A stretch of 64,000 nucleotides of DNA, taken from the NCBI GenBank assembly GCA_965655095.1, contig OZ296650.1, positions 127,224,001-127,288,000 on the forward strand. Direction: 5' to 3'. The stretch comes from Haplodiscus bocki (taxonomy: Eukaryota). The position numbers and the translations under genes are program-made. The notes below the pieces were generated by a model, which made no database searches, was not told the DNA's origin, and was given only the letters and a program-made list of their open reading frames with translations. Shown piece by piece: positions 33,176-64,000 of this stretch. How positions within the stretch are numbered: the stretch's first letter is position 1; each line of letters opens with the position of its first letter.

Positions 33176-35442
33176 CGTTAAAGACTGAATTACCTTTCAA
33201 TTCAATTTTTAAACTGGAATTAATTGTCTTCAATTTTATACAAATACTGGACTAATTATTAAGATCCGTAGTACCTAAAAGAATTTCAATCATTTCTTTT
33301 CCCATACTTACATCTTTTCTATGGCGGGAAAGAAGAGTGTTTAAACGCCAAGTGAAGGTACAAAAAAGGGAACTTTTTTATTATTACTACAAAGCAGTAA
33401 ACGCCAACATAGGCGGGAAAAAACACATGTCGACCCATTTCCTTCCTCACTGGTTGCGTTCTTTCCATTTCTCGAACGAAATTTGGACGGATCTATTCCA
33501 TCGGAAATGGACATCAAAGTACATATTCTCGTACCGACATTGTATTTACCAGCAGAAACCAACTTGTATGAAAAAGTCCTTAAAGGGAAAAGATAATCAA
33601 TTGCAAGTCAAGCATCAATTTAAGGGAAAGTTAATGCCAGATAATAATTATCAGTTTTTATGCACCGTATTAACATATGACTTACTTTTTTTCTGTTCTG
33701 AAAATGAGGAAAAACTAGTGACATTAATAATTTGTTCCTCGTTCAAAGGAGTCTTCACTACTTTGTTCCAGAATTAATCCGTATTAACTAGTAATGACAA
33801 ACCTTCAGCTGAGAGGAAGTTTAAATTGAATACGGATTCAGCTGTCTTTGCACGGAGTTGCAGCGTGCATTTTTAGTTGAAGAGCATACTGATGTCGCGA
33901 GACTAGTAGTGATGGAACATTTACAGAACAAGGACTCACTCCTGGAGTCTTTCACGCTTTAATACAGTCGTATCAAGTTTAAATTAGAATTTTTTCACAC
34001 TGTTTTAATTAGCAAATATTCGGAATCGGTCAATCTAGTATACGTAGAAGGTGGATTTTTTAAATATTTAAATAGTATAAAAAAAGAAATTTATAATTAG
34101 CAGCTTTCACGTTAAAGTACTCTGTGAATATCTGTTTGTTCCCTAGCGGTTTCGTCCTTGTCTGGATCAGTTCGATATGGTGATCCGTATATTCACGGAT
34201 CACTTACTTGAGAGTTTTATTGATCATACCCAACAAATCAAATCTATGATTTTATGGAGGCAGTTCATTGATTTTTGCTGAGGGTCTGGGAATATTTTTT
34301 CCTGTGGAACTCTCTGACTACATACAGGCTTCACAGATGTGCTGCGACATCTGCTAAAGTGTTTTCTTTCGAAGCAAGACTGCAAGAACTATTAAAATAG
34401 TAAAACTGGAGAAGACCTGAATCTCTGGAAATATGATTTCTGTTGCCCATTATGCTTAATATTGATTGAGTTTTTCTCTATGGAAATGGAAAGTTGAGTG
34501 AAAGCGATTAAAAAGGAGGTGGCAATAAAAGTCAGACAAAATGCATGAAGTTTCAAGACTAATATCATCCTGATGTTCCTCGGAAAATTTCATGAAACTT
34601 TTGTCACTACAGCAATTTTGTAAATGGCTCGCCCACGATTTAAGGTCGGGACTTCATTTAACATAGCTACAGCAAAGCATTGAATTGTCCTTATGACACT
34701 ATTTTGAGTTGCTGAATCGCAACTGTTCTGAAAAACGTGAACATAAGCTGTCGGCCAATTTTGATGTACCCGGGTTTACTTACTACCATACAAAAAACAG
34801 GGGAATCATAGAGTGTGAGATATGGTGATCTTTGAAAAGATTAAAGTTAAAGAAAGTACCATAGAAGTTTATGGTAGCATGCAAGTCATAAAGAGACCAT
34901 ACTATAGTTTTGTTCTATGCAAGTTATAGACTGTACCATAGTGTAGCCATAAAATGGAAAAGTGTGCGAGTGTTTTTTTAGATTATGATAACGTATTCTA
35001 GTGAACAAAAATGCGACGACAAAAGACTCATGGAAAACAATACACTAAAGTGTGAAGTTCAAAACTTCTGTGAATAATTTGACTGGCGAACATAATAAGT
35101 GTCATCTACGTTCATTTTCGGTTGCCTAAAATTAAAAACGAGAATTTGTGATTTCCCTTTCCCGAAATGTATAGTCTACAGTAGTAACAGTGTTAACTGA
35201 TCAGACAGGGGGTGGGGGTGGTAGACCCTCCATGTATTAAGATAGGCTACAGCGAGCAAACTCGGTTCGGCAGGAGCCGAAAGCCGAGAAGGGTCTACCA
35301 CCCGAGCTGAGAACGTTTGGGTTTTTTTCGGCACTGTGATACTCAATTTTGATTGGCTGACGAGGTTTTAGAGTTTTTCGTGCTCGATTCTGATTGGCTG
35401 CCGACAAGAATTTGGTTTTGTGTTATATTTGGGTTTTTTCCT

Positions 35443-35650
35443 AATGTATTAAGATAGGGTATAGTTTCGGCAATAGATAGGGTATAGTTTCGGCAATGTA
35501 TTAAGATAGGGTATAGTTTCGGCAATGTATTAAGATAGGGTATAGTTTCGGCAATGTGTTATGATTGGTTCGTATTAAGATAGGACGGCAATGCATTAAG
35601 ATAGCGTAATGTATAAGGATATGTCTTGCAATGGAATAGGGTATTTTTGG
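35443..35650 (+). repeat. 29-bp tandem repeats (AATGTATTAAGATAGGGTATAGTTTCGGC) in the left TIR, mirrored at ~52630-52865
   Basis: Three perfect copies, one 23-bp shortened copy and further degenerate copies. Confidence 0.9.
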
Positions 35651-35861
35651 CAGTGTGCGACAATTTTCGGCACTGTGAAGTTTGTTGTTTGACTTTTTGG
35701 TCCACCCGCGCCAAGCCGGTTAATTATTCCGCCACCGGATAAATATTCTGCCGCCGTATAAATTTATGCGCCGGCTGCTGTCCGCTGAAGCTCACTTATA
35801 ATTTTTCCCCTAAGTAGTATAGTGTGAGCAGAAGTGGGGGGGGGGGGGGGGGCGGAAGATG

Positions 35862-35927
35862 AGGTCTCCCACGGGGATTCGAACCTGGGCGGACGGAGTG
35901 CCGGACGCCACAACTTTTTTTGAGCTA
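35862..35927 (-). promoter_or_regulatory. tRNA-like Pol III internal promoter module (A box and B box), left TIR copy
   Basis: Minus strand reads TAGCTCAA...GGCGTCCGGC...CAGGTTCGAATCCCCG. B box GGTTCGAATCC at 35885-35875. Confidence 0.55.
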
Positions 35928-35954
35928 TTTAAAAAGATTGTGGTAAAATTTCAA

Positions 35955-36072
35955 AAAGTTGATTAGAATGTATAACTAATACAAGACCACCAGGTAAAGT
36001 TAATTAGAGTGTATAAAACTACAAGACCACAAGGTAAAGATAAATAGAATTGATAAAACTACAAGACCACAT
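35955..36072 (+). repeat. ~40-bp tandem repeat x3 just beyond the pPolB stop
   Basis: TACAAGACCAC recurs three times at ~40-bp spacing, with ..GGTAAAG.TAA.TAGA between copies. Confidence 0.8.
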
Positions 36073-39000
36073 TCAAAGAAAAATTTTTAAATCTAAAGGT
36101 TTAGTATGTATTCCATCTTCTTCTACAAGACGTTTAGGGTAGAAATAAGACAATCCCTATTTTGTCTGTTCGTAGGTTGCAACGCTATGTTTCTTTGTTC
36201 GAAATCCTCTGTTGATTGAAGTAACGTTGACTGCCTCTTCTGAAACCTTTCGATACTTTGACGTGGGTCCATCTCCACAGTCTTCCAGAGTTCTTTTATT
36301 GAGTCCCTTAACACTGAATTTGTACTCGTTACTCTTTCAATCGTAGCAACAATATGTTTTGCCACACAAGCACAACATTTCGGAACACCTGAATTTTTCT
36401 TTAAACAGTCCCGGCTCTCTCTTATCATGCTTCTTGTGAGCAGTACAATATGTTCTTGGGACGAAGTTGCCCGTTGCATTCGCATTGAAGCTATATGTAG
36501 AGTCTCGCGGGCGTATTGCTTCCGATTCGTTTCTTTCCTCTGGGAGAATAATGTCTTTCAAGTTCTCTTCCGACAGAGCTAAATATAGAGAGTCGGTATC
36601 CATTTCAAGCTCTTCATATCTTTCGGTATCGCAAAACTTTTTAAAGAAGTTATATTAAAGCTCCAACATTCTGAGCTTAGCATATTGCAAAATGAAGAAT
36701 CCGACAACGATTGGTTTTCGATGCTCAATTTCTGACTCGACAAGTTCAGCCTCGTACAAATGATCAGTGATGGAGTTAGGTCGCTTGAAAAGTTTATTAT
36801 CAATTGCACTGTGAATCTTTTCATCGTTCAAATATTTTGTCACAGTTTGTCGACTACGATCCATGATCTGGTACCTATAGGAGCTGTTTGCTAAAAACTT
36901 CATTGCTTCAGCCACTACGCTTGAGTTGGGATTTTCATCTTGTTGTCTTCGAGCATTGACGGCAGTCTGTACAAAGCTAGTGAAACACTTCATGGGAGTA
37001 TACTCAACTAGTTAATGAATTTTTGTACATTTAAGACCCAGATGCAAGCAATAAAATGGTAAGGGAGTGATGATAGTTCCATTTTTTAGGTGTAAGCTTG
37101 ATATGAGCATTCTTCTTGGTTGTGACATAATCTTTTTTTTCTGCATAATCTTTCATCAAATCTCCGATATCATTTCTGCTTACAACAGTGTTTTTAAAAA
37201 TTGGGGGAAAATTGGCAAAATATGCCTTCAGATGTTCCAGAATTTTGAGGACGCATTGAACGTAACCAAGCAGCCTTCGACGCTTAATCTCTTGCATGAG
37301 CCGTTCTTCGCTGAGATGTAGCTGATAGGAGAAATTTGCTCGCAGTTGACTTTTTACTGTCGCATGGGTTCGGTATAATTCCCACCAATTGCACTCCCGC
37401 ATTTCAATAATTTTGTATCCTTTCTGTTGGATATCTTCTTTGCGCAATTGGTCTTGTTCCTTCTTTTTTATCCCTCCCATAATTTCGTTGTCAGTCAATG
37501 ACGGGCGGGTTTCCTGACATGGACAGTAGTGGAAATAACAACCCATTGCATCAAAGACAGTGTTACAATGGTTACAACTTCCATCAACGCTAAAGCAAAC
37601 AATCTTCTTTTGTCTACCAGTTGTAAAATTGCTTTCTATCCTACATTTTGGACGAATTCGTTGAAAATAAGAAAGGACCATGTTTTCGATGGAGCGTGTT
37701 TTGTTCTGTCGAGGCACGAATTTTTGAGGTTCAGAGTCATAGTTCCATCTTGTACACAATCCATGAAGCATTGGTTGACACATCGAATAGGGATGGAGTT
37801 GGCTTGCGTCTACGCTGACAACTGACTTGCACAACTTCGTTGATTTGTGGATAAAAGTTTCGCCAACCACAGCCTTGCGTGTAAACACAATGGAGGAACC
37901 ACTAACCATGTCTTCACGAATCTTCTCCAAGAAGTACCTGTCGCTTTCAGTAAAAGGGTAAAACTTTGAATATGTTGATTTATGGAGGCAAATGTTTGCC
38001 AAAATAGGTGAAGTACAACCCAACTTTAACATATCAATCTCCTTTTGATGGTAAAATTCAATCATTTTCTACATTGCTTCTAGGGTTGGAACAACATCTT
38101 TGTTATTGTACCACATGAGAAAGTCTTTGAAAGATTTCATTCCTTCGCTCACCCTGATGCTCCGCAATTATGCGTAAATTTCATCACCTGTTGGAGGTAT
38201 CTTGTTTAGTCGTAACCTGCATACTGCTTGCTCCGACGATAAACCGTTAGTAGTGAGGTTTTCGAAGTCACTGTAATCTTGTTCGAGAAGAGTAGTTTTA
38301 CGCAGTTTGCTAAAGAAAGAATCGTATTGAGGTAGTTCTTTGTTGTTCGACTTTTTTGGATGGTCGAACCACTCAAAGGGAAAAAACCTTCAGTTTCCTT
38401 TGTTTTGTTTTGTAAGCTTTGCGGAACGAATCAAGACTAGTTGCCCCACTAAAAAAGTTCATAATATCAAGTAACTGCACATCACCAAACTTGGAGGAAA
38501 CAAATTCATTAGCTTTTTGATAACTGTTGGTTCAATTTGTCGTTTGTTAACAAGAATTGGCAACAGATACGACTTGATCAAATTGATGTCATACTTTGCA
38601 CTGTTAAAACCAAAAACTGGCAACGTGTTACAATAGCGCTCAAAGTGTTCCTGCAAATCAATTAGTTGGTTTTTCTGCATTTGGAGAAACTGAGTAGATA
38701 ACTCCTTCTATTCCACAGTGTCGTTGAAATACTCGTCGTTGTCATAATCAATAACTCGTTCTCGTTGGTTGTGTCTTTGGTTGAGTGGTTCCAAGATACT
38801 AGAGAGTTTAATCTTGACTGCGGTTTCTACTTCAATAAAACTTAATTTCATTTGTGCTTTGCGTTGCGTTGCCAAGCCTTCAAGGGCACTGAAAAAAAGG
38901 ATACAAGGTGTCGAGGATCTGAATTGCAAAGAAAAATGGGTTCTGGTATTAGGTTTGAAGAAAATGAAACTGATATAGGGACATGTTTTCCAATCCATTT

Positions 39001-40426
39001 TATAGTTTCAGTTTCTTTATACGTCTCTTCCTTAACGCAAAAAGATTCTAAATCGGAAACGGCCAAGTTTTTAAACAACTTTTGATCCTCTCTGTATGGA
39101 ATTTTGAAAGAATCCAACTTTTCAAAGAGCGTTTCTCTTAACTGGTCTACATTCTTCGGATAAAGGTGCTTGACTCCCTCGCTACATGTAATCAAATGTC
39201 GCTCCAAATTTCCAGTCTTTGAAAAGATTATGTCACGTGTGCTGCGGTGAAAAGATTTGAAGAAGGAGTTCATGTCGCTGACGTAACAAACGCGATTGTT
39301 GTAACGTAACAGTTTGACGCTCTTTTCAAACTTTTGAATACTTCTTCGAGCTAGTTCTCCAATCATTTCTCCATCCATAAAGTCAATGTCATAAAGAACA
39401 AATTTGAGTTGCAACATCTCCACTTTCGGAATATCAGTCATATCAACACCCTGGAACTTTGATGGATCTGCTTCCCCACAATTGTTCAGGAAAAGGTTGA
39501 AAAACTTGGATGTTTCTTCTTTGGGTCTCTCAATTCCATGCAACTGGAGAACAATTGCTCTGAAGAGGCAAAGATTATCTTTGTGTGGTTTTTTCGTGTT
39601 CTGTTCGTAAGTGAGGCATTTCACATTTTGAGTTTTCAAGAGCGGTTCAGGTAGTACAGAATCTTCACAACCCATGGGTATATCTTTGGGCAGCGCTGCA
39701 AAATCTGTCTGGTTTGTCAGTTTCCAAAACTTCAATTTGGTTTTGGCTCTCTCTCGTGTACCAAGGTGAACAAAATCTATTTTCTGTAATTTCTTTTTGA
39801 GGTTGGTAAGTCGTCTGGTGTACACAAAGGTTTCGACCTCTCCATAACCGTATTGTTCTCGTGAGCATAAAAATAACCACACGATACATCTTCAAACTTT
39901 TTGAGAAAAAATCCAAACGCAAGGTTATCTTTGGCAGCGCATTTGAGTCTTTGAATACTGATTCCAATTTCTTATTAATCAAAGAGTTGTCGAAGGTTGA
40001 CATGGTGAAATTGAAAACACGATGTCTTCCTTTTTCAAACTCAGAGTCAACGAGGAAGTCTTGACATGCTTGGAGTTCTTCTTTCAGAGTTGCCTCGACA
40101 TCTTCAAAGAGGTTATTCACGTCAAATTCACCTGATTTCATCTGAATTCCATGCTCGTTTGTTTTGTGTTGTCGCAACGCATAAAAGCCAGAAAATTCTA
40201 TGAAAAAAATTTTAAACTTGTGTGCAATTTTCACTCGAGGTGTAGCATAATTTTTGGCAATATGATAATTTAAATCTTTTTTTGCTTTAGTAGAGAAAGT
40301 GGGACAATTTGCACATTACAATGTTCCACCACTGCAGCGCGATTTGTGTGGAGATAGCTGTTGCTTCGCTACTGAAGTTCCATAATTTCTACAAGTAACT
40401 TTAACATTTCGGTCCAAAGCAGGCAT
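36073..40426 (-). pseudogene. pPolB: Protein-primed family B DNA polymerase with N-terminal C2H2 zinc fingers, vOTU-like domain and VSR-like nuclease insert; multiple frameshifts and stops
   Basis: ExoI SDLES, ExoII GFNSAKYD, motif A VDASQLHPYSM, motif B KFLANSSY, motif C MDTDSL. VSR-like VDGSC..CNTVFDAMGCYFHYCPC. OTU-like DNLCLFRA...LLRYNNRVCYV. C-terminus DGIHTKPL. Confidence 0.95.
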
Positions 40427-40694
40427 TGTTTGAGATTTTTGGCAATTTTTGAAAGCAGAATAATCTGAAAAAGTAAGGCCTTCGCCAACTTGATTCTAGC
40501 AATGCAACAAAAACAATGGCGGTTAAATTGTAACAAAAATTGGTTGTTACCCCGAACCATATATGGAAAGATCTTTAATGGAGCTGTCAATCATTTCTTT
40601 CATCAATCAAACTGACAGCTGATCAAGACCAAAAATCAATTAAAAAAAACATTTTTTCTCTTCATGTTGTGGCAGCTTGGCTGGGAAAATTACT

Positions 40695-40885
40695 GAAGTG
40701 GAACAATTATCTCCTCAGGTGTAGACAGGTTGTTTGAGAAAAGCACTCACGTGGAACAAGTTCCCTTGATAAGGAGACAGCTTGTGTGGGAAAGTCAATC
40801 AAGTTGAACAAGTTCCCTGATCAGGAGACAGATTGTCTCAGAAAATCAATCCAACGAATCAATTATCATCCAAGTTCCCCTCGAA
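40695..40885 (+). repeat. ~50-bp degenerate direct repeats in the divergent intergenic region upstream of pPolB
   Basis: GAACAAGTTCCC(T)TGAT(A/C)AGGAGACAG at ~40754 and ~40806, plus weaker copies at ~40700 and ~40872. Confidence 0.7.
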
Positions 40886-41149
40886 TAATTTATAGTCAAA
40901 TGTCTATCATTTCCATAAAAGCAACAGAAAGATGTTTTGTGTACAAACTCCGTAGTCTAGTGGTTCAACGATTTTAACCACACCACCACCGTGCCACGAC
41001 TTAATTCAAAATTCGAGGTATTAAAACCTTATTGGGTGAAACAAAAGCTATTTTCGATTGACATTATCCCGATGATAACGAAACCGTGCTTTTACCACTA
41101 CTCCATTAATTCTGTCATTTTGTAACATTTATCGAAGTAAAAACAGTCA

Positions 41150-41740
41150 ATGTCTATAAAGAAGAAAATTCCAAGTTTAAGCAAATTTTATACACTTTAC
41201 GAAGAAGTTCCCGAAAGTTTTTTGGACGAAATTGACGTTGATAGTTATTTTTACCATAATACCTTGGACCTTGCCCTGATCGATAATCGAATTGTTCGAG
41301 TTAGCAAAGGTTCCAACAAAAAAATTTTTGCTTTGAAACGTTTTCAGTTTTGCAATTTGAAAAATCAACAAAGATTCATTCTTGAAGAGGAGGTGTCAGT
41401 TTCGTTAAAAGAACTTCCACCTAATTTGAACACTCGACGCCAGTTTTTGAAACAATACGATAAAGCTGTCTTTATCCAGCTTTATACAACTTACCCAAAG
41501 CAAAGCCAGAGATTGGTTTTACTTCATTTAAAAACGAACTATTTGCACATTATTTCTAAGACAATAAAGAACATGGCAACAGACAGATACGTCTTTCTCT
41601 TCGTTTTGAGCGTAACAAGGAGTGTTGTTTCTCCATCTAAAAGTTTCAAATTGTTGGTGAGCAGAAGTTTCTAACAGAAGTTATCAATCTATGACACTAC
41701 GAAGTGCATAGCTTTTACAAAAATCGTTACTATATTGTCT
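41150..41740 (+). pseudogene. Polinton accessory protein, possibly PC4/Whirly-like ssDNA-binding; frameshifted
   Basis: 174-aa ORF with beta-beta-helix pattern IFALKRFQF..QQRFILEEEVSVSLKEL; the pattern repeats in a shifted frame. Confidence 0.4.
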
Positions 41741-42170
41741 CAAAGTGTGGAATTACTGGTAGCAGTTATGACATCTAACTCAAGTATTCTTGCTCAGTTA
41801 CTTTACCAAGACCAAATTATAGTGGAACTCATCGGAGATGTGATTTGCTCAAATGAGAAATGTAGAGGCGAAGAGAGCGTATACATAACGAGCTCCGAAA
41901 AGATCAACAAGAGCACTTACGAATGTAAGCAATGCAAAGCTTGCACTCACGTGCTCAATATTCCTCTTAAGGATCAGAAACCATGTGTTACCTTGTTTGG
42001 TTGGACCTACTGCTTTACAAAAAAGACAAAGTTGGATTAAGAAAAAGAGAAACTTTCGCCTCTATTGCGACAGTGAATCAGCCAATCAAAACTCTCCAAG
42101 ACAAAAGCAGAAGAAGCTAATAATGAACCTGCTCCAAAAAAAGACAAAGATATTATCAAATTTGGAATAA
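41735..42170 (+). pseudogene. Small Cys-rich (zinc-binding) accessory protein, frameshifted
   Basis: CSNEKC...YECKQCKAC...KPC in the ORF track. Confidence 0.45.
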
Positions 42171-42186
42171 TCGTGCCACGCTCCTA

Positions 42187-42876
42187 TTGGCTGTTTTACT
42201 ACAACATAAATTCACTTTTGGATTCATTTTTCAAACTTTTCTCAAACTAACAACACGCTCTTTTACAATCAACACAATTAAATTTACAGTCTCCAACAAC
42301 GGAACACAGTGGATTTTGGACTTTGTTCCAGATTCGGTAGTTTTGTCCGTAAAGGATCTAGATGACAACCTTTCAATCAGTTCCCTGGAATTTCCACTGG
42401 CAGCTTGGTCTTGGTTGCTGTCCCAAAGACAAGAATTTTTGGACAATCATTTAGCTCTAGTTTCCATAACTTCCAACCAACAGGGAACATTTGAAATGAG
42501 AGAAAAAGTACTCTCCAGTGTTGGAAGACAAGATACCGACACTAGGGGATACGAGCTATCCGATCTAGAAGACATTGAATTCAGTTGGGAAGATCCTGCA
42601 GCGGATATGGACAGTGTTTATCGACTTGGAACTGCTAGCCCATTTTCCCCATCCATCTTTAACAATTTTCAGATGGAGGGATCAACCGCTGCCAACCCAA
42701 GAATTGTTGACGATGAGGAGGACAAGGAGAATTCAGCTCCAACAACAACAACACCAGAGACTGAGCGTCCAACCGAACCCACTAGATTACTGAAAAGTCG
42801 TCCATTTGGGACTCCACTAGAAAATGTGCCTGACTCTGTATACATGACTGTGTTTCGTTATTTTTTTTGTAATTGA
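42187..42876 (+). CDS. Acidic, low-complexity accessory protein with a KEN box
   Basis: 229-codon open frame containing ELSDLEDIEFSWED and DDEEDKENSAPTTTTPE. True start uncertain (ATG at ~42496 possible). Confidence 0.5.
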   Translation: MAVLLQHKFTFGFIFQTFLKLTTRSFTINTIKFTVSNNGTQWILDFVPDSVVLSVKDLDDNLSISSLEFPLAAWSWLLSQRQEFLDNHLALVSITSNQQGTFEMREKVLSSVGRQDTDTRGYELSDLEDIEFSWEDPAADMDSVYRLGTASPFSPSIFNNFQMEGSTAANPRIVDDEEDKENSAPTTTTPETERPTEPTRLLKSRPFGTPLENVPDSVYMTVFRYFFCN

Positions 42877-43254
42877 TACATTGTATGTGTTTTGTATATA
42901 CAGGTAATTGAATTTTTTTTTCTTTTTTATCAAAACTTTTAAAAACTAGTCAGACATGTGTGAGATGAAAACAGTTCTGGAGTCCGTTTGTTTGATCTGA
43001 CTTGTAACAGCTAGTCTTTGCAGTTATTGGGTTTATCCAGAGAAAAAAGTGGGACAAGACAGCGAGAATCAAAATTCAAAATCCTTGCGAAAATGAATAC
43101 AAGAAGTATTGTTTGAACGGTGGCGAATGCTATTATCTAATTGACGAAGTTATTGTAGGCTGCAGTTGTACATGGTTTAACGGAGGAAATTGTTGTGGAA
43201 AGTATATGTGGTGGACATAGGTGAGACTTTAAAATAAGTTATTTTTTACACAAA

Positions 43255-43715
43255 ATCGTACGTGCTTTAAAATTTTTAATTCATAATCTGACATGTTATA
43301 AAATTTTTGTTTTAAAATCTGACACGTTTTAAAAATTTTGTTTTAAAATATTACGAGTTTTAAAAAATTTAAATCAAAATCTGACACGTTGTAAAATTTT
43401 GGTTAAAAAACCTGCTTTTTAGAAATATTTTTTTCGTCAGAATTGTGCTTTTTAAAAATAAACAAAAATTCCAAAATTCGTCTATTTTACGGGGTAAATT
43501 CAATCAAAACGTGATTTTTTGAATGCATGTTTTTGTTCAAAATCTGATTTTTAAAAACCATTTCTTAAAACAAAATCTGACACGTTGTAAAATTTTTGAT
43601 TTAAAATCTGACACCTTGTGAAAATTTTGTTCTAAAATATGACGCGTTGTGAAAAACTTTATTTCAAATCTGACACGTTGTAAAATTGTTTTTTTAAAAT
43701 CTGACCAGGCTTGAA
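43255..43715. repeat. 31-bp minisatellite (AAAATCTGACACGTTGTAAAATTTTTGATTT-like), two clusters of ~5 copies
   Basis: TCTGACACGTT core at 31-bp spacing in 43255-43410 and 43540-43715, between convergent genes. Confidence 0.88.
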
Positions 43716-43809
43716 ATGTTTTGAAACGGAATCTCATTTTCAACTACCATTTTGTATTCTTTGGGAACAATCATTACTCTTACTAACTGTAACAAAAAAA
43801 AACTGTTTG

Positions 43810-44427
43810 TTAAAAAGATTTTATTTTAAAATAAACTAAATTACTGTCATAACTAACATGACCATCAGGAAAAAAATCTACAAACATTGTTAGTTCCAAT
43901 TCAAACTTAGTCTTTTTGGTTTTTTCAATTCTTTCTACAAACACTGAACTACTGGTCTGCAGTGATTTGTTCTTTTGGAGAGCATTCATAAAATATTGTT
44001 CAAACTTTTTCTCAAGAGCCTCTTTTTTGCAACGTTCGGCATTTTGTCCACTCTTCTGTTTATTTGGGACAAGAGATTGCTCTGCGCACATTGTCAAACA
44101 CATTTCCACTCTTTGCAATAACTTTTCCGCTGAATCGGTACTTGAACAGGGTATAAAGACAGTCCACGTGTTGATAGGTGAAACAAAATGTTTCCAATTT
44201 ATGTAGCAGAAACTCAATTTCTTCAAGTAGTGTATTGTGATAGTTACAAGCGGGTAAAGAGCACGGCTTATCGTCGTGATGGGCGATGCAGTAGTCTTTA
44301 CAAACAAGGTTTTTTTCAAATGTTTTTGCAGAAATAAAGAAACTTTTTTCTGAAATTTCTCCGTAAAAGCTGGCGATTGTTTGTAAAATATAGGCTGCCA
44401 TCTGAGTGCTGCGATAAAAAATGACAT
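43810..44427 (-). pseudogene. Unknown Polinton accessory protein with a Cys/His cluster, frameshifted
   Basis: Overlapping ORFs 43810..44427 and 44060..44401 (CKDYCIAHHDDKPCSLPACNYH). Confidence 0.45.
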
Positions 44428-44756
44428 AAAGGGTCTGAAAACAACAAAGTTTTGAATTACAAAGACTATTATCTAATATGGAAATTACCTACATATATGG
44501 AAATGTGCTTGTCTACCTCCCTGCCTCCCGTACGCCTACGGCTCCCTAGCGCTGTCGGTCCCTTGCATTCGCAATTCACTGAATTGGTAAGAGTATTCCA
44601 TAAATGGAAAAGTTGCCATAAAACGAAATCATGCCTAATCTGATTGGCTTTAAATACCAGTTTGTTTATCTCCCAAAATCATTTTTTCACCCTTTTCTCC
44701 AGAATAAAGTTGATCTTCTCCTTCTCACTTCTCCAAACAACAAAATTGAATCTGAA

Positions 44757-45328
44757 ATGGCATACAACACTAAAGCAACCTTGGACAAACTGGCTTGCAC
44801 CGACGATGTGGACTTTGGTAAATGTCAAGACACATTTGGACGAATTTCTTGATCCAAAAACTTATTCGACCACTTGGACGTGAAACACAAAGTGTTCAAA
44901 AGGGACAAGAACAAACAATTTCGACTGGCACAAAACTTGACAATGGGAGAGGCAGACTCTAATCAGTTTATTCGACTGAGGAATCAGCTAGTTCTTGCAG
45001 TCAGAGACTTTAGCAAAGACGATAATCTGCCCTTGTGCAAATGAAACTACTAGAAAAAGACATGGAAATGGAAGAGCAGCTCAAACTTACACATGAAGTT
45101 GTAGATCGACCACACAGAAAGATTTGCGTGCCTATGCTGCACCACAATGTATAGAAACCAGAGACTTCATATGCTCGAGTGCAATTGTTTGTAGGAAAAA
45201 AGGACGAAAAAAAATTCAATCAAGTTGTTTATGTGAACTATAACCTTGATGAATTTGTTTATGTACTTGATGTAATGAATTCTGTATATCATAAAGTTTT
45301 TGCTAACGAACCTCTTTGTAATGTTTAG
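44757..45328 (+). pseudogene. Accessory protein with two tandem PC4/Whirly-like repeats
   Basis: MAYNTKATLDKLACTDDVDFGKCQD...LDVKHKVFKRDKNKQFRLAQNLTMGEAD.NQFIRLRNQL, then ARVQLFVGKKDEKKFNQVVYVNYNLDEF. Contains stops and a frameshift. Confidence 0.5.
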
Positions 45329-45386
45329 TAACAAGTAATTGCAACAATTCACTCATTACTCTCATTTTCTTTCCATTGCTGTCAGA

Positions 45387-45805
45387 ATGAGCTGGAACAT
45401 TCGAGAAAACAGAAACCTATTTTTTAAATTCAAATCAAATTTGGACTTTATCATGTTGCACTAACAACACCCAAAACTTCTACCGAAAAAATTACCTTAA
45501 CCTTAGTTGAAATGCAACAGTTGCCTAAAATTGGAAAAGTGGATTTCAAGAGTGAACTTTCTTGCCTAAAATCGACAATATACAATGGTAGGAGAAAATT
45601 ATGCAGAGGTTTCAAGACTGATATGGACAATTTGAGTTTTGTAGTTTACCGTTACCGAAACAATACATACGTCAAATACACTGAATTGGAGCTGAAAGTG
45701 ACTGAATACGCAAAAGTTCTTTCTAAACGAGTATATCTATTGAGTTATATTGACGTATTCTTTAGGCGGTGCATTGTATTGGATGAAACAACAGTTCATT
45801 ATTAA
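45387..45805 (+). pseudogene. Accessory protein, possibly PC4-like
   Basis: LSFVVYRYRNNTYVKYTELELKVTEYAKVL; 5' part frameshifted. Confidence 0.4.
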
Positions 45806-45822
45806 AGTAAATTTCATCAAGA

Positions 45823-46226
45823 ATGGATGTTCTTTTCCTCATGAGCATTTTCCGATTGTACCCGGGATGAAACTGTCATTTGAACACAATAGTGTTCGAA
45901 AAAACCCATTTCTAAGTGCATGTTTTTGTTGGGATTCTAGACTTTGTTTACGTGAGATGGATCAAAAAATTAAATTTGGTAGAACCATTGGCTATGGAGA
46001 CTCGTACTTGGACTCTGTAATCGGCTACTTCAAATTATTCAGACTACATGCAATATTACACGATGCTGCTGGAGCAATTCGATTACAAACCGTTAAAGGC
46101 CTTGGCTACTGCCACATGATTGGTCGACGTCCAAACTATTGTTTGCTTGGTCACGTGACTGGACTATTATTTTGTCTTTACGTAAAAATCTTTCTAACTT
46201 CCATTTTCAATATAATCGACTTTTGA
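45823..46226 (+). CDS. Small protein with HAILHD motif (phospholipase A2-like HD signature)
   Basis: FRLHAILHDAAG...GYC...CLLGHVTGLLFC in an open frame. Confidence 0.5.
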
Positions 46227-46698
46227 ATCAGTATATTTTTGTATTAGATTTTGAGCCAACTGAGAAAAACAAATTAAGGGACTGGGACTTCTTATTGATG
46301 GTTCTGTACATGAATTTTCATTTTGTCCGCCAAAGACTTTTAAACCTAATAAACAGACAACATGGAACACAAGTCATCTACATGGAATTGCGTGGAGTAG
46401 TGGAATGTTGGAATATTAGAAGCTGTTTGCTGTGTTTTACGACATAAAAGTAATGAACGCAGAACTGTTTGCTGAAGGGTTCGAAAAGTGTAGATTGTTG
46501 ACCAGATTTCTCGGACAAAATATAGAAAGTTTGGATGACCATGGTTGCCTAAAAGTTCAAGATCTTGTTGGAGAAGGAAAACCGAACAGTTCGTGGATCT
46601 GCTCTGGTTACCCTTTCCGACACAAAACAAGGCTTCACTGTGCCGAGAAGAAAGCAAAAAAGTATGGAGACGGGGCTATGAAACATTTATATTTGTAA
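46227..46698 (+). pseudogene. DEDD/DnaQ-like 3'-5' exonuclease-fold protein with Cys/His C-terminus
   Basis: Reconstructed across a frameshift: VLDFE...HLHGIAWSSG...GFEKC..L...ESLDDHGC...WIC...H...HCAEKKA. Confidence 0.6.
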
Positions 46699-46807
46699 AT
46701 TTTGTACGTGTGTATTGTATTTGTGTTTACTACTATTTTAATTCTTTCAACTCGACATTATTTTTTCTACAGCCTTCATTTTAAGAATCTTGAGCGTTCC
46801 AGACTAG

Positions 46808-47068
46808 ATGCCTGATCACACTGATAATATCAATTTGGTTAAAATTGTCTTTGACGATCAAAACGTTGAAAGGAGATCGTGGTCTCGTTTGGGACAAACC
46901 TGTTCTGGGTCTTTAATTGAGCTTTTGTCCCAATTCTTTGTAAAACTCTTGATTGTTTGCGGTTGCTTTTGGCGTATACATCTGGCCTAGACTTGTGATG
47001 AATCTACAGTTTGGGTAGGAATCTTGTGCAGTGCAGCAGGATACGTTTTACTTTCACCAAAACTATGA
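46808..47068 (+). pseudogene. Small two-TM membrane protein; its stop overlaps the ATPase start (ATGA)
   Basis: Hydrophobic segments LLSQFFVKLLIVCGCFW and TVWVGILCSAAGYVLLSPKL*, one internal stop. Confidence 0.5.
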
Positions 47069-47725
47069 ACAAGTTGACTTCTACAAAAAAACCGCATTTT
47101 TGTATCTTTGGTTGGACCGAGCGATTCTGGCAAACCGTACTTGATTCATGAGTGGTTGAAAGTTGGAACATTTCAACCCAAATTTGACGAAATTTGTTTT
47201 TTCTTTCAACACCCTCAACCACTCTATGGAGTCATGCAAAAAGAAATTGATGATCTTGAGTTTGTTCAATGTGTACAGTTGGAATTTATTAACTCTTTGA
47301 AAAATAACGGTACTAAGTATCTGCTCATTTTTGATGACGCATCCGCAAAAATTTGCAACTCTAAGGAAGTTGTGGACATTGCTACCGCTGGGAGACATCT
47401 CGATTTTAGTACTATATACATTAAACAACTTATTTCATCAAAGTAAACTAGGAAGGGATTTTGAGCTGCAAAACACACATATTGATCCTTTCAAGTCACC
47501 TCCAGATGTGCATCAAGTTGCTACAATTACTGTACAGTTGGGACTTGGATCAGCTCTCATTGACTGGTATCGGGATGCAACGTCTGTACCTATTGGCTAT
47601 TTATTGACTGATTTGTCTCCACGAACAGACGGCTGCTTCGTTACTCCACCAATAGCGGAATTGTTCCATCAAAATTTTATGTAGCCGACATTTTGAAGCA
47701 TTTCAAATATTTCGACGACTAGCAC
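47065..47725 (+). pseudogene. ATP: FtsK/HerA-family (A32-like) genome packaging ATPase
   Basis: Walker A GPSDSGK(P), Walker B YLLIFDD, arginine finger TAGRH and downstream LFHQSK..RD.ELQNTH; frameshifted. Confidence 0.93.
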
Positions 47726-47739
47726 ACGAAATCTCTCTA

Positions 47740-48020
47740 ATCTCCAAGCATTCCAGCACTTTTCCCTCGCATGCAAAATTCAAATTCTAGAAACTTATCC
47801 AAGATAATTTATCCGACTTCTCAGCGAATGCATCGTCAACCTACTGCAAGGAAAATTGTCAGAAGTAAAAAGAAGTCACGTCCTAAAATACAGAGACAAA
47901 TTTCTTGAACTGTCTTTAAAAATAACAACTTGGAAGCAACGAAGAAGTCTAATTTCGTCGCAAAAAGGATTATTGCTCATAAAAACAATTTTCCCCTTCG
48001 TCATTACTCATTTGTCTTGA
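47740..48020 (+). pseudogene. Small basic conserved Polinton protein (putative core protein)
   Basis: FIRLLSECIVNLLQGKLSEVKRSHVLKYRDK...WKQRRSLISSQKGLLLIKTIFPFVITHLS*. Confidence 0.55.
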
Positions 48021-48021
48021 G

Positions 48022-48437
48022 ATGGGACAGTTTGTTCTAGTACCTTTTTCTGTCTACAACAGCAGCAACAACCCAATCATTGTCACAAAACAAGAACCAC
48101 CCAAATACAAATCTGAGAAAACTCCCACGTACCACATAGATACGTTAAAAACTGAAATAAACCAACAGTTTAGCACAAGTGCTTCCCCTTTAGTAAACAG
48201 AATTTTAGAGTCTCCTCGCATCAAGCTATCAAATTCTAACGCTTTGATCCCGGATGGAATACAGACAGGTAAGCTGTTGAAAGACTTGGCACAGCATTTG
48301 AAGCGCAAAAACGTAACCACACTTGATATTTACTTTACTTTACTTTACTTGACGCAGCCAGCATCACTCCCGACATTGTTGTCAACAGTCGTGCCAAGGG
48401 TAAAGAAAGAGGAGCTTGGATCCCTTTCAAAATCTGA
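48022..48437 (+). pseudogene. Conserved Polinton hypothetical protein upstream of the integrase
   Basis: MGQFVLVPFSVY...YFTLL/DAASITPDIVVN..AKGKERGAWIPFKI* once an extra TACTT is removed. Confidence 0.55.
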
Positions 48438-49323
48438 ACGACAAAAATTGCAGAAACTTTACACTCAAGGATTTGCAGCATATGGTTTTGTGCGCCATTT
48501 GGCAAAAGCAACGGAACTCTCTCCGTCAAAGGTCAGAGAGTTTTTACATTCAAAGACTTCATATACTAGGTTCACACAAGCAACACGTAAATTCAAAAGA
48601 ATGAGAGCCTTCGCGAGATTCAAAGGTGAATTTTGGTGTATGGATCTAGCGTATGTTGATAAATTGGGAAACGACAATAATGGTGTAATGTATTTACTAG
48701 TTCGCTAAGACTTGTCTGACAGAACCGTAGTTGCAAAAGGAATAAAGACAAGAGACTCGAAGGAAACAGTCAAGACATTTTCAAAAATGATTATCAAAAA
48801 GAATAGAGCAAAAAAACTTTGGGTCGATCAGGGGACAGAAATTGCTGGGGAGTTCAAGAAACTTTGCAGCGTTGAAGGAATAGAAATTTACTCTACAATG
48901 AGTTAGACGAAGCAGCTTTTGCAGAACGTACAATACGGTCACTCAAAAACATTTTGTATTGCTACATGGAGGATTATGGGTACAAGTATATTCATAAATT
49001 GCCTCAATTTATTGCAACAATGAATTCTAGAAACAATCGCAGCATAGACATGAAACCCAACCACGTCAAGAACTCTGACTTTATTTCAAAACTTTACAGT
49101 AAACCACTCAAAGAATACAAAAGCCCAAATTTGGAATTGAATACAGAGCATTTCCAAGTAAGATTTACCCTTCAGGAAATGTTATAGACGACAATTTACA
49201 CAAGAAATATTTGCAATTGTTGCCATTGCTACTGGAAAACCTCCAACATATACAATCGAAGACGAACAAGAAGAAGTTATACGTGGGAAATTCTACAAGA
49301 AGGAACTAATTAGAGTCATTTGA
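48391..49323 (+). pseudogene. INT: Retroviral-like (RVE, DDE) integrase
   Basis: WCMDLAYVD (D1), LWVDQGTE (D2), AFAERTIRSLK (E), C-terminal RGKFY..EL. Stops and frameshifts; no chromodomain seen. Confidence 0.95.
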
Positions 49324-49325
49324 GT

Positions 49326-50135
49326 ATGGATTCACTTACAGTCGAGTTGGTTTCCAATGCATCTTCACAGCTCTTTCCAAACAACACGCTCAGTTCATTT
49401 ACATTTTTTTTGCCGGAACAAGTGAATTTGGACGGACAATGGGAGGTGGCAATTTCCGACATTTCTTACCCATCAATGTATCAAAACCTTACAGAGGGGA
49501 AATTTATGTTTTACGATGAGAAACTCTCCAAAACAACAGAGGCTTACTATCTTGAACGCGGACTGTATTCCTCCATAACTGACATTGTGGAAGCTATGAA
49601 TACTATCATACAAGAAAGAAACAAACACAGAGACACTTGCATCACAATCATAGTTAGCAGGGTAACGCAAAAAAAGTAAAGGTGTATCTAGCGAATGAAG
49701 AATCGAGTCTAGCAATTTTAAGTACTAACTTGGGACATATATTTGGAGGAGATGTGAGAAATGGTTTGGGAATACTCATGTCTGGGAAAGGACCGCATGA
49801 ACCAACATTTGCTTACGATATTGTTCGCATCCATTCACTCATGTTTTACACGGACATTGCAGAGTACAATATTGTTGGAGACACAAAGGCGCCTTTGCTC
49901 CGTTGCTTTCCATTCATATCCAAGCTCAAATCTGGTGACACATTAACTACTGGACAATACATGAACTATCAGACTTTCAGCAATCTTCAGTTTAGACGAT
50001 TGTTGAAAAACTCTTTTCACAGCATACACAATGATTTGCGAGACACGTCTGGTAAGAAGATTCCCTTTGTCTCGGTGGGAACAACTCGACTTGTTCTCAA
50101 GTTTAGAAAAGTTTCTGACATTCATTTTGTATTAA
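49326..50135 (+). pseudogene. PX: Minor capsid protein (penton, single jelly-roll)
   Basis: LVSNASSQLFPNNTLSSF..LPEQVNLDGQWEVAISDISYP ... YTDIAEYNIVGDTKAPLLR ... DLRDTSGKKIPF..G...LVLKFRK; one frameshift. Confidence 0.9.
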
Positions 50136-50149
50136 AATTAGTGTGTAAA

Positions 50150-50500
50150 ATGGTTGCATCAAACACTCTTGAACTTTCCTACTACAAAGGTATTGGACGT
50201 CAAAGAGAACGTGGTTCTGGAGCTCGTGCGCAAGTTATTGGGAGAACCGCCATTCCTTTCTTGAGCAAATATATCTTCCCAGCTCCAAACGCGTGGGTGC
50301 TGATTTGTTGGAATTTGCAGTCCCAGAGGTAGCTGATGTTGTTAGCGTAAAGAAAACTTTCCAAACTGCTGCCAAAAGCGTAGGAACACAGACATTGAGA
50401 AAACAACTTGGAGGTGGCAAGCGGAAGAGAAGCATTCCAGTTAAAAATTTAAGCGAAGCAGTCGGTAACGCAGAGACATTCTTACTAATATGGCAAAGTA
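50150..50500 (+). pseudogene. Small Gly/basic virion core or membrane-active protein with adenain-type Gly-rich motifs
   Basis: YYKGIGRQRERGSG..AQVIGRTAIPFL...GADLLEFAVPE...LRKQLGGGKRKR. Confidence 0.6.
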
Positions 50501-50503
50501 AAA

Positions 50504-51855
50504 ATGACAGATCTGAATAATTTTCGGTACCAACATTTTGTTGCAGTTTCTGGGAATCCTGGTGTGAAAGTCCCAGTTTTGGACAATGTGTTGTCTTCTA
50601 ACGAACAAGAAATTTATCCCACTACATCTCTTCATGAAAACAGCGATGAGTTTGAATTCCAAACTGATCGCAAGGTTTACGTGGGTTTGCGACAAACATA
50701 TCTTGCTCTAAAAATTAAACTAGTTAAAGGACGTGGTTTTGATACTAAAAAAACAACAGAAAAGACAAAATAGCACAAAGAAGACACTGTTTTTACTGAA
50801 ACAGGTGACGATGACGTGGAGTTGATAGAAGAGGACCAGCGAGTGTCTCATATTACTCATGTGAACAATATTCTGCATTCCATTTTTTCTAATGCAGAAT
50901 TGTACATCAACAACCAGCAAATCTACAATTCAAACGCACTTTATGCTCACAAATCTCACATTTCTAAAAAATTCAAAAATACATTGTCAGATTACAAGGG
51001 AGTCTTGCATTGTGAAGGGTATGACTATGAAGAAGATCCAGAGAATCTCCTCGAAGGTCGATTTTTCAGTAGAATGAAATTGTACAGTAGACCTGACGGT
51101 TTCATGTCGTACGGTAAGCTGGGCATCGACTTTTTTACAACTTCGGAGTTACTATATCCAAATATGAATGTAAAAATCAGACTAATTCGAGCGCGACCAA
51201 CTTTCTACACAATAGGCGAGAATTTGAATTTAGCTTGGGTATTGCGGACTGTTCTCTGTACACTCGGCGCGTGATGCTCAAAGAAGACTATCACAAAAAG
51301 AGAATGTCTCAACTAGCTTATGCTCCAGTTGAGTAAAACTACATGGAAACGTTGGCAAAGACTTTTTTCGTTCATGCACGACAGAACCTATTCATTTAGG
51401 AAAATATATTCAACAATGAAGCTATACGTCGATTAGCCATTGCAATGAATTCAAACTCTGCCTTTACCGGCTCCTTTGCAAAGAACCCATTCTGATATCA
51501 ACAGCTTAATCTGAGAGATTTTAGAATACTCAGAGGAGGATAGCCAATTGTGCACCACGATACGACAGATAATTGTTGCTTGTATGTCATAACAATGAAA
51601 GCATTGAACTTTCAAGTTGACATTCCATCAATTCCAATTAATAATTTCAACAACCCTTACGTACTAGTGTTTGATCTGACTTCAATACAAGATGCTACTG
51701 AGCACTGTCACTATACGGAATTAATTGGAGAACCACTGAGATTGGAACTATACTTCAGTTCAGCTCTAGAAAGTATCACTGAAGTCATTGTATTGGGTGA
51801 ACGTATGTCTTCTGTTGCAGTCGACATGTTTGGTGTTGTGGGAAAAAATCTTTGA
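50504..51855 (+). pseudogene. PY: Major capsid protein (double jelly-roll, hexon-like)
   Basis: EFEFQTD..YV.LRQTYL, VNNILHSIFSNAELYINNQQI, LLYPNMNVKIRLIRA, AFTGS..KNPF, LVFDLT, LRLELYFS..L. Several stops and frameshifts. Confidence 0.92.
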
Positions 51856-51856
51856 G

Positions 51857-52255
51857 ATGGATAACACTTCCCTTAAACAAATTGTTAACCCTATACTTTT
51901 GCTCAAGTATCCGTACACGGGATCGTTTCCCTCAGACTTTGTTCCAAACTTTCCGAAAGACAGGTTTGTGATTGTCATCACACAGCCTAGCAACACGCCA
52001 GGAGAGCATTGGGTAATGGTTGCAAAATTTCATCATGAAGTGTATTTCGCCAATTCTCTTGGTCTATCCATCAACAATTACACGTTTCTAAAGCAGAATT
52101 ACAGCCAAATGGTTCGGACAAGACTACAAGATCATCCCAGTGTATGCGGTTTCTACACAATTTATGCAGCATTTCATTTGTTCAAGCTTCAACAAGAGGA
52201 GATAACTGGTGTTCATGATGTTAATGTACTCTATTTTATAAGTAATTGCTTGTAA
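51857..52255 (+). CDS. PRO: Adenain-like cysteine maturation protease; frame intact but catalytic Asp appears mutated to Asn
   Basis: GEHWV (His), YFANSLG (expected FxDSxG), LQ...SVCGFY (oxyanion Gln and Cys). Confidence 0.92.
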   Translation: MDNTSLKQIVNPILLLKYPYTGSFPSDFVPNFPKDRFVIVITQPSNTPGEHWVMVAKFHHEVYFANSLGLSINNYTFLKQNYSQMVRTRLQDHPSVCGFYTIYAAFHLFKLQQEEITGVHDVNVLYFISNCL

Positions 52256-52307
52256 TTGATTACCAATTTATTGTAAATGTCCAATTTATACATTGTATTT
52301 GTTCAAC

Positions 52308-53131
52308 TTTATACATTCTAATTAACTTTTTAAAACTTTACCAAAATCTTTTTACATAGCTCAATCACAAAAAAAGGTATGGCGTCCGGCACTCAGTACG
52401 CGCAGGTTCGAATCCCCGTAGGAGACCTCATCGTCCTGCCCCCCCCCACTTCGGTTCACACTATACTACTTGCGGGGAAAAATTATAAGGAAGCGTCAGC
52501 GGACGGCAGGCGCAGTAAAAATTACACGGCGGCAGAATAATTATCCGGCGGCGGAATAATTATCCGGGCGGGCGCGGGTGGACCAAATGTTCAAAAAAAA
52601 ATCTCACAGTGCCGAAGATTGTCGCACACTGCCAAAAACACCTTATTCCATTGCAAGACATAACCTTATACATTAAACTATCTCAATACATTGCCGTCCT
52701 ATTTTATTACGAACCTATCTTAATGCATTGCCAAAACTATACCCTATTTTAATACATTGCCGAAACTATTCCCTATCTTAATACATTGCCGAAACTATAC
52801 CCTATCTTAATACATTGCCGAAACTATACCCTATCCATTGCCGAAACTATACCCTATCTTAATACTTTAAGAAAAAACCCAAGTATAACCCAAAACCAAA
52901 TTCTTGTCGGCAGCCAATAAGAATCGAGCAAGAAAAACCCTAAAACCTCGTCAGCCAATCAGAATGGAGTATCACAGTGCCGAAAGAAAACCCAAACGCT
53001 CTCGGCTCGGGTGGTAGACCCTTCTCGACTCTCGGCTCCTGCCGAACCGAGTCGGCTCGCTGTAGCCTATCTTATTACATGGAGGGTCTACCACCCCCCC
53101 CCCCATCTGATCAGCTCACACTCTTACTACT
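52308..53131 (-). repeat. Right terminal inverted repeat of Polinton 1
   Basis: Reverse complement of 35180-35975; ends ...CTCTTACTACT followed by TSD GTCTAC. Confidence 0.93.
52357..52428 (+). promoter_or_regulatory. tRNA-like Pol III internal promoter module (A box and B box), right TIR copy
   Basis: TAGCTCAAT...GGTATGGCGTCCGGC...GCAGGTTCGAATCCCCG. B box at 52405-52415. Confidence 0.55.
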
Positions 53132-54505
53132 GTCTACAGTGATGTACACAGTCGGTCGACAAAGGCATAAGTCTTTCTTTCTCAGCCAAAACTCGGCAAG
53201 TTAAACTCTGAAATGTGCTGGCGGGCATTCTCCTGGGTATTGAAGTTTTCAAGACCTTTGAATTACTCAGAACTATGAAAGTAAGAAATTGGAAATTGTT
53301 TATCGGAAAAAAAAATTCAAGAAAAACATGAAAATCATTGGATGACCATACAAAGAAACATTGAATTCATTAACTGGCCATACATATAGCTGACAGAGTT
53401 TTCATACTATGACCATAGAAAAAAAACAGGAAACTAATGGCATTACCATAAGCTGTTTTTTGCATGGCATTTTATGGTGCTTAGTATGATTTGCATGTCG
53501 AGTCAACCCGGGTAATTCATTTCATTACAACTGCGATATTTTTTAGTAAGTTTTTTACTTTCAATTGTGGTTGTAAATTCACAGCCAAGTTTTTCTGTTT
53601 TGTTTTTTAACGTGCTTTTGAGAAAGGTTAACAACCTTTTGTTTGAGTTTTTGACACCCTAACCAGACCAGCCAGTCTCATTTCTGTATTGTGAAAAAAA
53701 GCGGATGAGAACGTTATATTATTTACGTTTAGTATTATTGCCTCCATTCTCGGCTTGCCGATACCTGGTGTTGTAAACTGTCACCCTCATCTTGAGAAAG
53801 TGACCTTGATTTAGTACCAGAAGTATTATTAGACCTCATGAGAAAGGGACACAACAAGCAAATTTAGTTGAAGAATAATTCTCTGAAATTTACTGCTTCA
53901 TTTCATTTGGTTCCAGTACGATCTCAGTAAAAACTATTTCTATACGAAAGTTTTCAATCAACCCCGGTCAGAAATTTAACACGTCTATAAGCCTAACGTA
54001 TCCGACGAGAAGGCATTTGTTTGTGGGAATTATAGGTGTTTTCGCCTGTGATTCCATGTTGCATGCAGTTTGGATCGATAAGACATTTTCTAAAGATTTT
54101 ATTTTTGCTCGCATTAGCATTTTAGAAAATAAAACAAAAAACAGTTCAGGGGTCGAAACTTACTCGAACTTTTTTCTATGACAAGGACCGGGGAAAAGAA
54201 GAAAGGGGGCGTTGTCTCGTAGCAAAATAACGGCGTTCAGTGGCGTTTTTCCGAATTCAGTGCGGTGTACCGGTCTGTCGCAGCAAAATTTCGCCTTTGA
54301 CAAACCTTAGTCTTGTGCATTTAATTTTTAAAGGTCTCGTCTGAAGAAGGTCACTAAACACTAAAGCGACCAGATCAAAGGGGTAATATATATAGTCTCT
54401 CAGCAACCAACAATTGAGACGGTTGGCTAGTCCGGATGCATTCAACTTCGTCAAGTGTTGAACTGCAGAGCAAAACTGAGGTATAACATTCGAGTAGCAT
54501 GGCAA

Positions 54506-57951: not shown

Positions 57952-58304
57952 AGTGTACAAAAAAGCATATGACACCAGGCGCGCAGGCCGCATCCTAATA
58001 TGACACCAAACATCCGACACCACAATCATAACATTACAAATCACAGGGTGTATAATTATATAATAACCAATACTTAGAAGAATAGCTATAACCTATAATA
58101 TACAAATACTTGAATAAAAATATATAATAATATTCAAATAATTGAATGAATAAAAATAAAAAATAATATTCAAAAATTTGAACGAATATAATAAAGAATA
58201 AATACACCCTGTGATTTGAAATGTTATGATTGTGGTGTTGGATGTTTGGTGTCATATGAGGGTGCGATCCTTTGCGACTGATGTCATATGCTTTTTTGTA
58301 CACT
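57952..58304. repeat. Foldback with ~100-bp inverted arms around an AT-rich spacer
   Basis: AGTGTACAAAAAAGCATATGACA...TCACAGGGTGTAT (57952-58053) pairs with ATACACCCTGTGA...TGTCATATGCTTTTTTGTACACT (58202-58304). Confidence 0.9.
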
Positions 58305-58504
58305 ACATAATTCGTGAAAGTATACAATTACTTTGAATTAGAAATAAAATTGAATTTATAAGATTTCTTTTTATTAGATAGTACTCTATCATGATATCTC
58401 ACATTTCGTTGTCCACGTAAAATATATTTTTTAGATTTAACATTATTTTTAACATATCTAGTCTTTTCAAATGATTCTTTTACTTTTACAACCATTTAAT
58501 AGCA

Positions 58505-62364: not shown

Positions 62365-62417
62365 TTTCGCGTCTCTTTTTATATAGGATAAAATTTTGAA
62401 ATGATTTATCTGAGATC

Positions 62418-63990: not shown

Positions 63991-64000
63991 TTCATTTCTA

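Follow-up and report, generated by a model that had tools for sequence, protein, structure and literature searches.

A family B terminus inside both terminal inverted repeats of a Polinton from Haplodiscus bocki, probably left by nested insertion

Both terminal inverted repeats (TIRs) of a Polinton family in the genome of Haplodiscus bocki, here called family A, contain an inner terminus that is an insertion and not an ancestral end of family A itself. The inner motif is probably the genuine terminus of another Polinton family, family B. It is retained as a 79-137-bp insert in both family A TIRs and was likely left there when a B element nested within an A-type TIR. The case was met in a window of 64,000 nucleotides, the whole stretch of DNA that was analysed, which holds one degenerate family A copy of 17,952 bp whose genes are broken by stops and frameshifts (Table 1). 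Family A integrates by its outer end, and the inner terminus is probably not a working second end among the integrated copies examined.

The window element and its embedded terminus

The window element is a Polinton/Maverick: it has long TIRs with (AGT)2 ends, a 6-bp target-site duplication (TSD), polymerase B, an integrase, an A32-like ATPase and a double-jelly-roll capsid protein. Its polymerase fragments match, at a score of 0.96-0.97, Atlas clusters in which 34-72% of members carry PF03175, and direct Pfam and PDB searches of these fragments gave no match. The outer 25-mer has 1107 exact matches in the genome and its reversed control none; family A comprises hundreds of copies. Mavericks/Polintons are reported to have 5'-(AGT)2//(ACT)2-3' ends, a 6-bp TSD and TIRs of 46-1,447 bp (PMC8097293); family A shares with them the ends, the TSD, the range of TIR sizes and the pPolB, INT, ATPase, capsid and protease genes.

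Table 1. Features of the window element (window positions)
Feature	Position	Strand	Remarks
Left TSD, GTCTAC	35174..35179	+	6-bp
Family A Polinton, whole element	35180..53131	.	
Left TIR, ~796 bp	35180..35975	+	90.5% identity to right TIR
Outer TIR module, left	35180..35812	+	Native to A and A0; true end, G-run, 29-bp repeats, GC-rich repeats
29-bp repeat array	35443..35568	+	
Probable captured family B end, left	35813..35900	+	B positions 1-79, short form, alpha allele
Putative Pol III B-box-like motif, outward-reading	35875..35885	-	Within captured piece
Protein-primed DNA polymerase B region, broken	36123..40141	-	Atlas PF03175 clusters, score 0.97
Packaging ATPase fragment (Pox_A32)	47078..47446	+	Pfam E=5.5e-5
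Integrase, broken	47983..49187	+	tblastx to family B region whose ORF matches rve
Double-jelly-roll major capsid protein, broken	50489..51855	+	Atlas, recognition value slightly below threshold
Adenovirus-type protease ORF	51857..52255	+	Labelled by inspection; family B protease ORF weakly matches Peptidase_C5
Right TIR, ~823 bp	52309..53131	-	
Probable captured family B end, right	52390..52470	-	
Outer TIR module, right	52471..53131	-	
Right TSD, GTCTAC	53132..53137	+	6-bp

Three further features of the window lie outside the element. Twelve tandem units of ~2.04 kb each, most of them 96-100% identical, occupy 1295-24463; an AT-rich block (GC ~24%) with several minus-strand ORFs occupies 58001-64000, and a short inverted repeat pair lies where it begins (57943-58313).

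The inner motif, AGTAGTATAGTGTGAGCAGAAGT followed by a G-run, begins at 35813, and its mirror copy ends at 52470. The true ends are at 35180 and 53131, so the inner termini sit 633 bp (left) and 661 bp (right) from them, in agreement with the preliminary description, which had placed a second terminus ~630 bp inside each TIR and copied to both sides. The same description held that the inner motif closely copies the true end, and this resemblance exceeds chance. When the terminal 26 nt at the outer end, without the G-run, were compared with the TIR interior, the score was 25 against a shuffle mean of 14.3; that score was reached by 1 of 300 dinucleotide shuffles and by none of 42 element-body tiles, the best of which scored 20. 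Exact matches to the inner 18-mer number 882 across the genome, against 0 for its reversed control, and the motif has no match in viral contigs. A chance resemblance of the inner to the outer end is ruled out by the shuffle test taken with the genome-wide counts against controls. Because Polinton termini are conserved across families, the inner end resembles the outer one.

The flanks of the inner termini (CCCCTA / TGCGGG) are, as first described, inverted and do not form a TSD; they are part of the ~800-bp TIRs, which are 90.5% identical between left and right. From these flanks it had been concluded that this is not a simple nested insertion. In the window, that statement holds in so far as each TIR contains one B end fragment, and a simple insertion with both guest ends and a TSD was not found. 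It does not extend to nesting with later trimming, since trimming deletes one junction and the absence of a TSD is thus compatible with a nested origin.

Family B and the polarity of the insertion

The free form of the inner motif was found with a pattern bearing non-C bases upstream of it, which gave 43 matches. Among the first 30 of these 43, there were 14 free family B ends, one other free end (L055), nine internal copies in a more distant clade (clade C) and six internal family A variants. A B-specific motif gave 46 matches, and its 40 new loci comprised 28 free B ends and 12 copies behind the A outer module; in total, 43 free B ends with unique flanks were collected. The two-ended copies of family B show a perfect 6-bp TSD in 10 of 13 cases and one with a single mismatch in two, and one end is truncated in the thirteenth. 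Family B has a TIR of ~160 bp, ORFs matching rve (integrase, E=4.5e-8) and, below the cut-off, Peptidase_C5 (E=0.0017), and homologues of the A polymerase, ATPase and capsid (tblastx). By its TIR, TSD, integrase, protease and A-gene homologues, family B is a Polinton/Maverick. Its proteins are 28-59% identical to those of the window element (tblastx) and its gene order differs: the genes run head to tail, and the polymerase lies at the opposite end and in the opposite orientation. A search with the B integrase gave 136 scored matches, 30 of them at 60% identity or more and the remaining 106 at 46-50%. Family B is therefore a separate Polinton family in the same genome, distantly related to A. 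The exceptional free end L055 (G000:C6:74.695 Mb) has its first 36 bp in common with B, followed by an unrelated short repeat, with no Polinton gene within 20 kb.

Insertion polarity is evident from elements chosen by their outer ends. Ten were picked where two genomic matches to the outer 25-mer face each other as a pair, and all ten have an outer-end TSD (nine perfect). Six of the ten lack the inner motif at both ends, their TIR being contiguous over the site. Five of these six form the group A0, which has the gene order of the window element at 71-76% nucleotide identity, and whose TIR modules and outer end match those of family A without the inner motif. The inner motif is thus an insertion and not the ancestral end of family A.

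The preliminary description had proposed the opposite history: the element would have started with an ancestral TIR of ~165 bp, to which an outer end of ~630 bp was added later, and would have kept two usable ends. A real Polinton terminus with a TIR of nearly that length does stand behind the inner motif, the ~160-bp TIR of family B, but it is not the window element's own ancestral end. Copies that begin at the inner motif with their own 6-bp TSD likewise exist, as family B; among the ends examined, none was found with a family A body. The geometry proposed, an A outer end on a B half-genome, does occur in rare chimeras such as L120/L121 (G000:C8:10.345-10.364 Mb), a palindrome of the B polymerase half with A outer ends as caps and a near-perfect outer TSD (GACATG/GACATA). 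The window body groups with A0, which has the outer end only and the same gene order, and is unlike that of B, and no shortened form of A was found. For the window element, the proposal is largely refuted, and we regard it as very improbable.

The preliminary description had also suggested that the element could use two alternative ends and give two genome lengths, and the integrated copies of family A show neither. Among short inserts, 171 have the C flank and two a non-C flank, and both of the latter keep outer-module sequence upstream; all 12 long inserts with a non-C flank lie behind the GC-rich repeats of A, with an outer end found in 11. An unbiased sample gave the same picture; it consisted of the first 30 among 431 hits for a motif downstream of the insert. 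All 30 A ends carry the inner motif behind the A junction, 29 of them with an outer end 410-847 bp upstream, a spacing whose variation is explained in large part by the copy number of the 29-bp array. In seven A-type pairs from this sample, the inner flanks never form a TSD, whereas the outer flanks do so in six (five perfect, one with one mismatch); in the seventh, the outer flanks are inverted. Three pairs with an outer TSD have TIRs 98.5-99.5% identical and are thus young insertions. Integrated A-body copies starting at the inner motif were found in 0 of 14 odd-flank candidates and 0 of 30 sampled ends. Adenovirus-type protein priming and the integrase both require a free DNA end, so priming or integration would not be expected at an embedded terminus. 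The findings do not show a two-origin element.

Junctions, intermediates and direction of transfer

At the A site, the insert covers B 1-79 in its short form, which the window has, or B 1-137 in its long form. Its first base is exactly the B terminal base in all 30 of the A ends sampled, and likewise in clade C. At its 3' junction, there are a GCGGAC microhomology and a short duplication; the ~30 bp that come next repeat B 66-79 and beyond that have no identified match, which counts against the reading preferred here. Longer remnants have the same 5' junction and B right-end sequence past the B TIR, and their length is ~220 bp in palindromic elements with few genes, whereas in L120/L121 it reaches several kb and takes in the polymerase. 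The captured piece of the window is on average 90% and at best 94% identical to free B ends. Long A inserts match free B ends at 93.8%, and B ends match one another at 92.4% (alpha allele); for a non-coding piece shared by families whose proteins are about half identical, such likeness would point to a recent transfer.

The preferred reading is a nested insertion that was later trimmed and copied. The B integrase would have placed B in an A0-like TIR, ~630 bp from the end, with the B right end facing outward. Deletions would then have stripped most of B, leaving 79, 137 or ~220 bp or several kb after the common 5' junction, and panhandle-type repair during strand-displacement replication may have copied the altered TIR to the other end. 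Since then, the insert would likely have bridged the ends of A and B through their shared homology. Two of these states can be seen elsewhere in the genome. Polinton Y lies inside the right TIR of Polinton X (L168:3531 to L165:1175, G000:C3:130.33-130.35 Mb) with the near-perfect TSD GTCATT/GTCAAT, and its nesting gives a double terminus at one end only; it shows, for another pair of families, the precursor state through which the capture by A would have passed. Copying from end to end is visible in a B copy (L134/L135, G000:C10:85.77-85.79 Mb; TSD CATCCC) whose TIR has grown from ~160 to 722 bp, at 98.5% identity. This TIR is the B left end on both sides, the left having been copied onto the right. 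An intact B-in-A0 composite with both B ends was not found in the genome, and the nesting and trimming are therefore steps that we infer.

The same junctions bear on a second account, in which template switching or illegitimate recombination joined co-replicating linear A and B genomes without integrase nesting, and trimming and copying followed. Neither a TSD nor a second B end is left, microhomology and a short duplication mark the 3' junction, alleles are common to A and B, and chimeras occur (L057, with its divergent pPolB half, and L120/L121), all of which such joining could give. However, the insert begins at the exact B terminal base in every A end sampled and in clade C, as integrase joining gives, and a TSD-flanked Polinton within the TIR of another does exist in the genome. 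Template switching is thus unlikely to be the source of the insert, and nested insertion remains the preferred reading.

The direction of transfer was considered with trees of pPolB and capsid built without the duplicate loci L160, L162, L139 and L166. Insert-bearing A is a clade in both (100/100 on pPolB, 100/99 on capsid). Family B falls outside A+A0 on pPolB (85/99), where an A+B grouping is not rejected (p=0.42), and on the stem of A in the capsid tree (88/92, not starred). As the attachment of B differs between genes, the B-to-A direction rests on junction anatomy and parsimony and not on the root. The capsid placement and the tolerated A+B grouping leave some room for the reverse course, in which the motif arose inside A TIRs as a duplicate end that could be activated and was later adopted by B; of the 882 matches to the motif, moreover, 43 have a non-C flank, so that it is much commoner within A than as an end of B. 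Yet A0 and other relatives lack the motif, clade C has it at another TIR position with another junction, the free end L055 has the first 36 bp in common, and no A body begins at it. We consider this reverse course distinctly improbable.

Recurrence, retention and significance

Capture of B-type ends appears to have occurred more than once. In clade C, the B-type end stands before the GC-rich repeats with a different junction, whereas in A it stands after them. The capsid tree rejects A+C as one clade (p=0.002) and pPolB does not (p=0.12), which makes a separate capture by clade C probable. The partners of several clade C ends are rearranged, and no clean TSD is readable there. B ends also occur as two alleles: 17 of 43 free ends are alpha and 26 beta, and inside A 23 of 30 are alpha and seven beta. 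As both are found inside A, a single insertion is insufficient, and repeated capture or ongoing conversion is suggested. Together, the Y-in-X nesting, clade C and the alleles common to A and B suggest recurrent exchange.

Other composite forms are known in this genome. A polymerase half at 69% identity is joined to an A TIR in L057, and one TIR in L130 has three termini. Gene-poor, near-total palindromes of 15-20 kb (L122/L123, L124/L125, L126/L127 and L132/L133; e.g. G000:C1:27.53-27.54 Mb) have caps made of the A outer end and ~220 bp of the B right end, arms 90-96% identical and, in one case, the TSD GTCCAG; these elements are possibly non-autonomous Polinton satellites. In L096, L033 and L037, the ends have an extra AGT or the first 9 bp doubled, as jumping-back initiation might produce. 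Tandem arrays containing TIRs, with periods of ~1.1 to 15.6 kb, lie at G000:C1:752-762 kb, C6:31.41-31.42 Mb, C5:6.68 Mb and C12:2.13-2.16 Mb.

The insert is well conserved. Across 30 sampled A ends, the mean pairwise identity of the inner 18-mer is 0.956, compared with 0.82 for the true end (0.95 for its main variant), 0.85-0.90 for five other TIR motifs, 0.92 for the B-box region and 0.93 for the protease-side body. Such conservation fits either a recent sweep or constraint, and it would not be expected if the insert were a dead relic, except after a recent capture. The inner 18-mer lacks CpG, unlike most of the comparison motifs, which makes the hint of constraint a weak one.

The putative B-box-like motif lies within this captured piece. 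Matches to A-box and B-box patterns, made without a shuffle control, place a B-box-like motif in 42 of 43 B ends and an A-box-like motif in all 43, spaced 53-54 nt apart in 40; the A-box-like motif of full B ends falls in the part absent from the short form in the window. The box region resembles the T-arm of tRNAs with a long variable arm; the host tRNAs covered by the analysis were those for Arg, Lys and Thr. A tRNA gene in the B end or insert was considered and rejected, as ARAGORN found none in 17 loci and Rfam gave no tRNA match in seven; folding z-scores of the B end are -1.3 and +0.2.

A broader reading, which we hold tentatively and consider rather doubtful, would make Polinton TIRs landing pads where foreign termini are captured and stay on as functional modules. 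The B end might have been retained for a putative function, either as a second priming-complex site or as a TFIIIC/Pol III box serving as a chromatin barrier or small-RNA promoter. It might also be a recombination bridge for swapping ends and body halves and spawning palindromic satellites. A and C would each have made a capture, which gives two events at the least, and the insert could have helped A to expand.

Several known systems offer parallels. A mutant of adenovirus 5 whose ITRs are embedded was reportedly described by Haj-Ahmad and Graham in 1986. Adenovirus ends can also undergo panhandle repair, which copies one end onto the other. As in family A, an origin lies inside a protein-primed linear genome and ends are copied; the mutant, however, is a laboratory one with its own ITR, whereas here the end of another family has been captured and fixed naturally. 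In nested or composite DNA transposons, one element lies inside another and the composite moves by its outer ends. Here, in contrast, the guest has shrunk to its end and been duplicated symmetrically into both TIRs.

Accretion followed by deletion between adjacent integrated elements also yields chimeras in Polisuviricotina, for which one preprint gives tandem integration and deletion as a source of mosaics and notes internal repeats distinct from TIRs (bioRxiv 10.64898/2026.10.13.758929). Those mosaics, as presented there, swap replicase and capsid modules, whereas here a non-coding terminus is nested in a TIR, with graded remnants and shared alleles. Nested retrotransposons are reported in PLVs (PMC12220804). 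The available text of PMC8097293 mentions no foreign terminus comparable to that in both TIRs of A, present in hundreds of copies. The literature searched, which includes passages of PMC8097293, PMC12220804 and PMC9863843, gave no account of any Polinton TIR that contains a foreign terminus, although TIR annotations in supplements or repeat libraries might include comparable examples.

The embedded end is a real, family-wide feature. It is probably a nested insertion followed by homogenisation of the TIRs, and intermediates document it unusually well. Terminal motifs within TIRs will mislead boundary calling. Polinton replication has mostly been inferred from adenovirus, and the elements described here provide natural sequence evidence bearing on the repair of Polinton TIRs. 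They show a route to long, modular TIRs through nesting, trimming and end-to-end copying, with intermediates visible in one genome, and a route of exchange between families that share only about half identity in protein.
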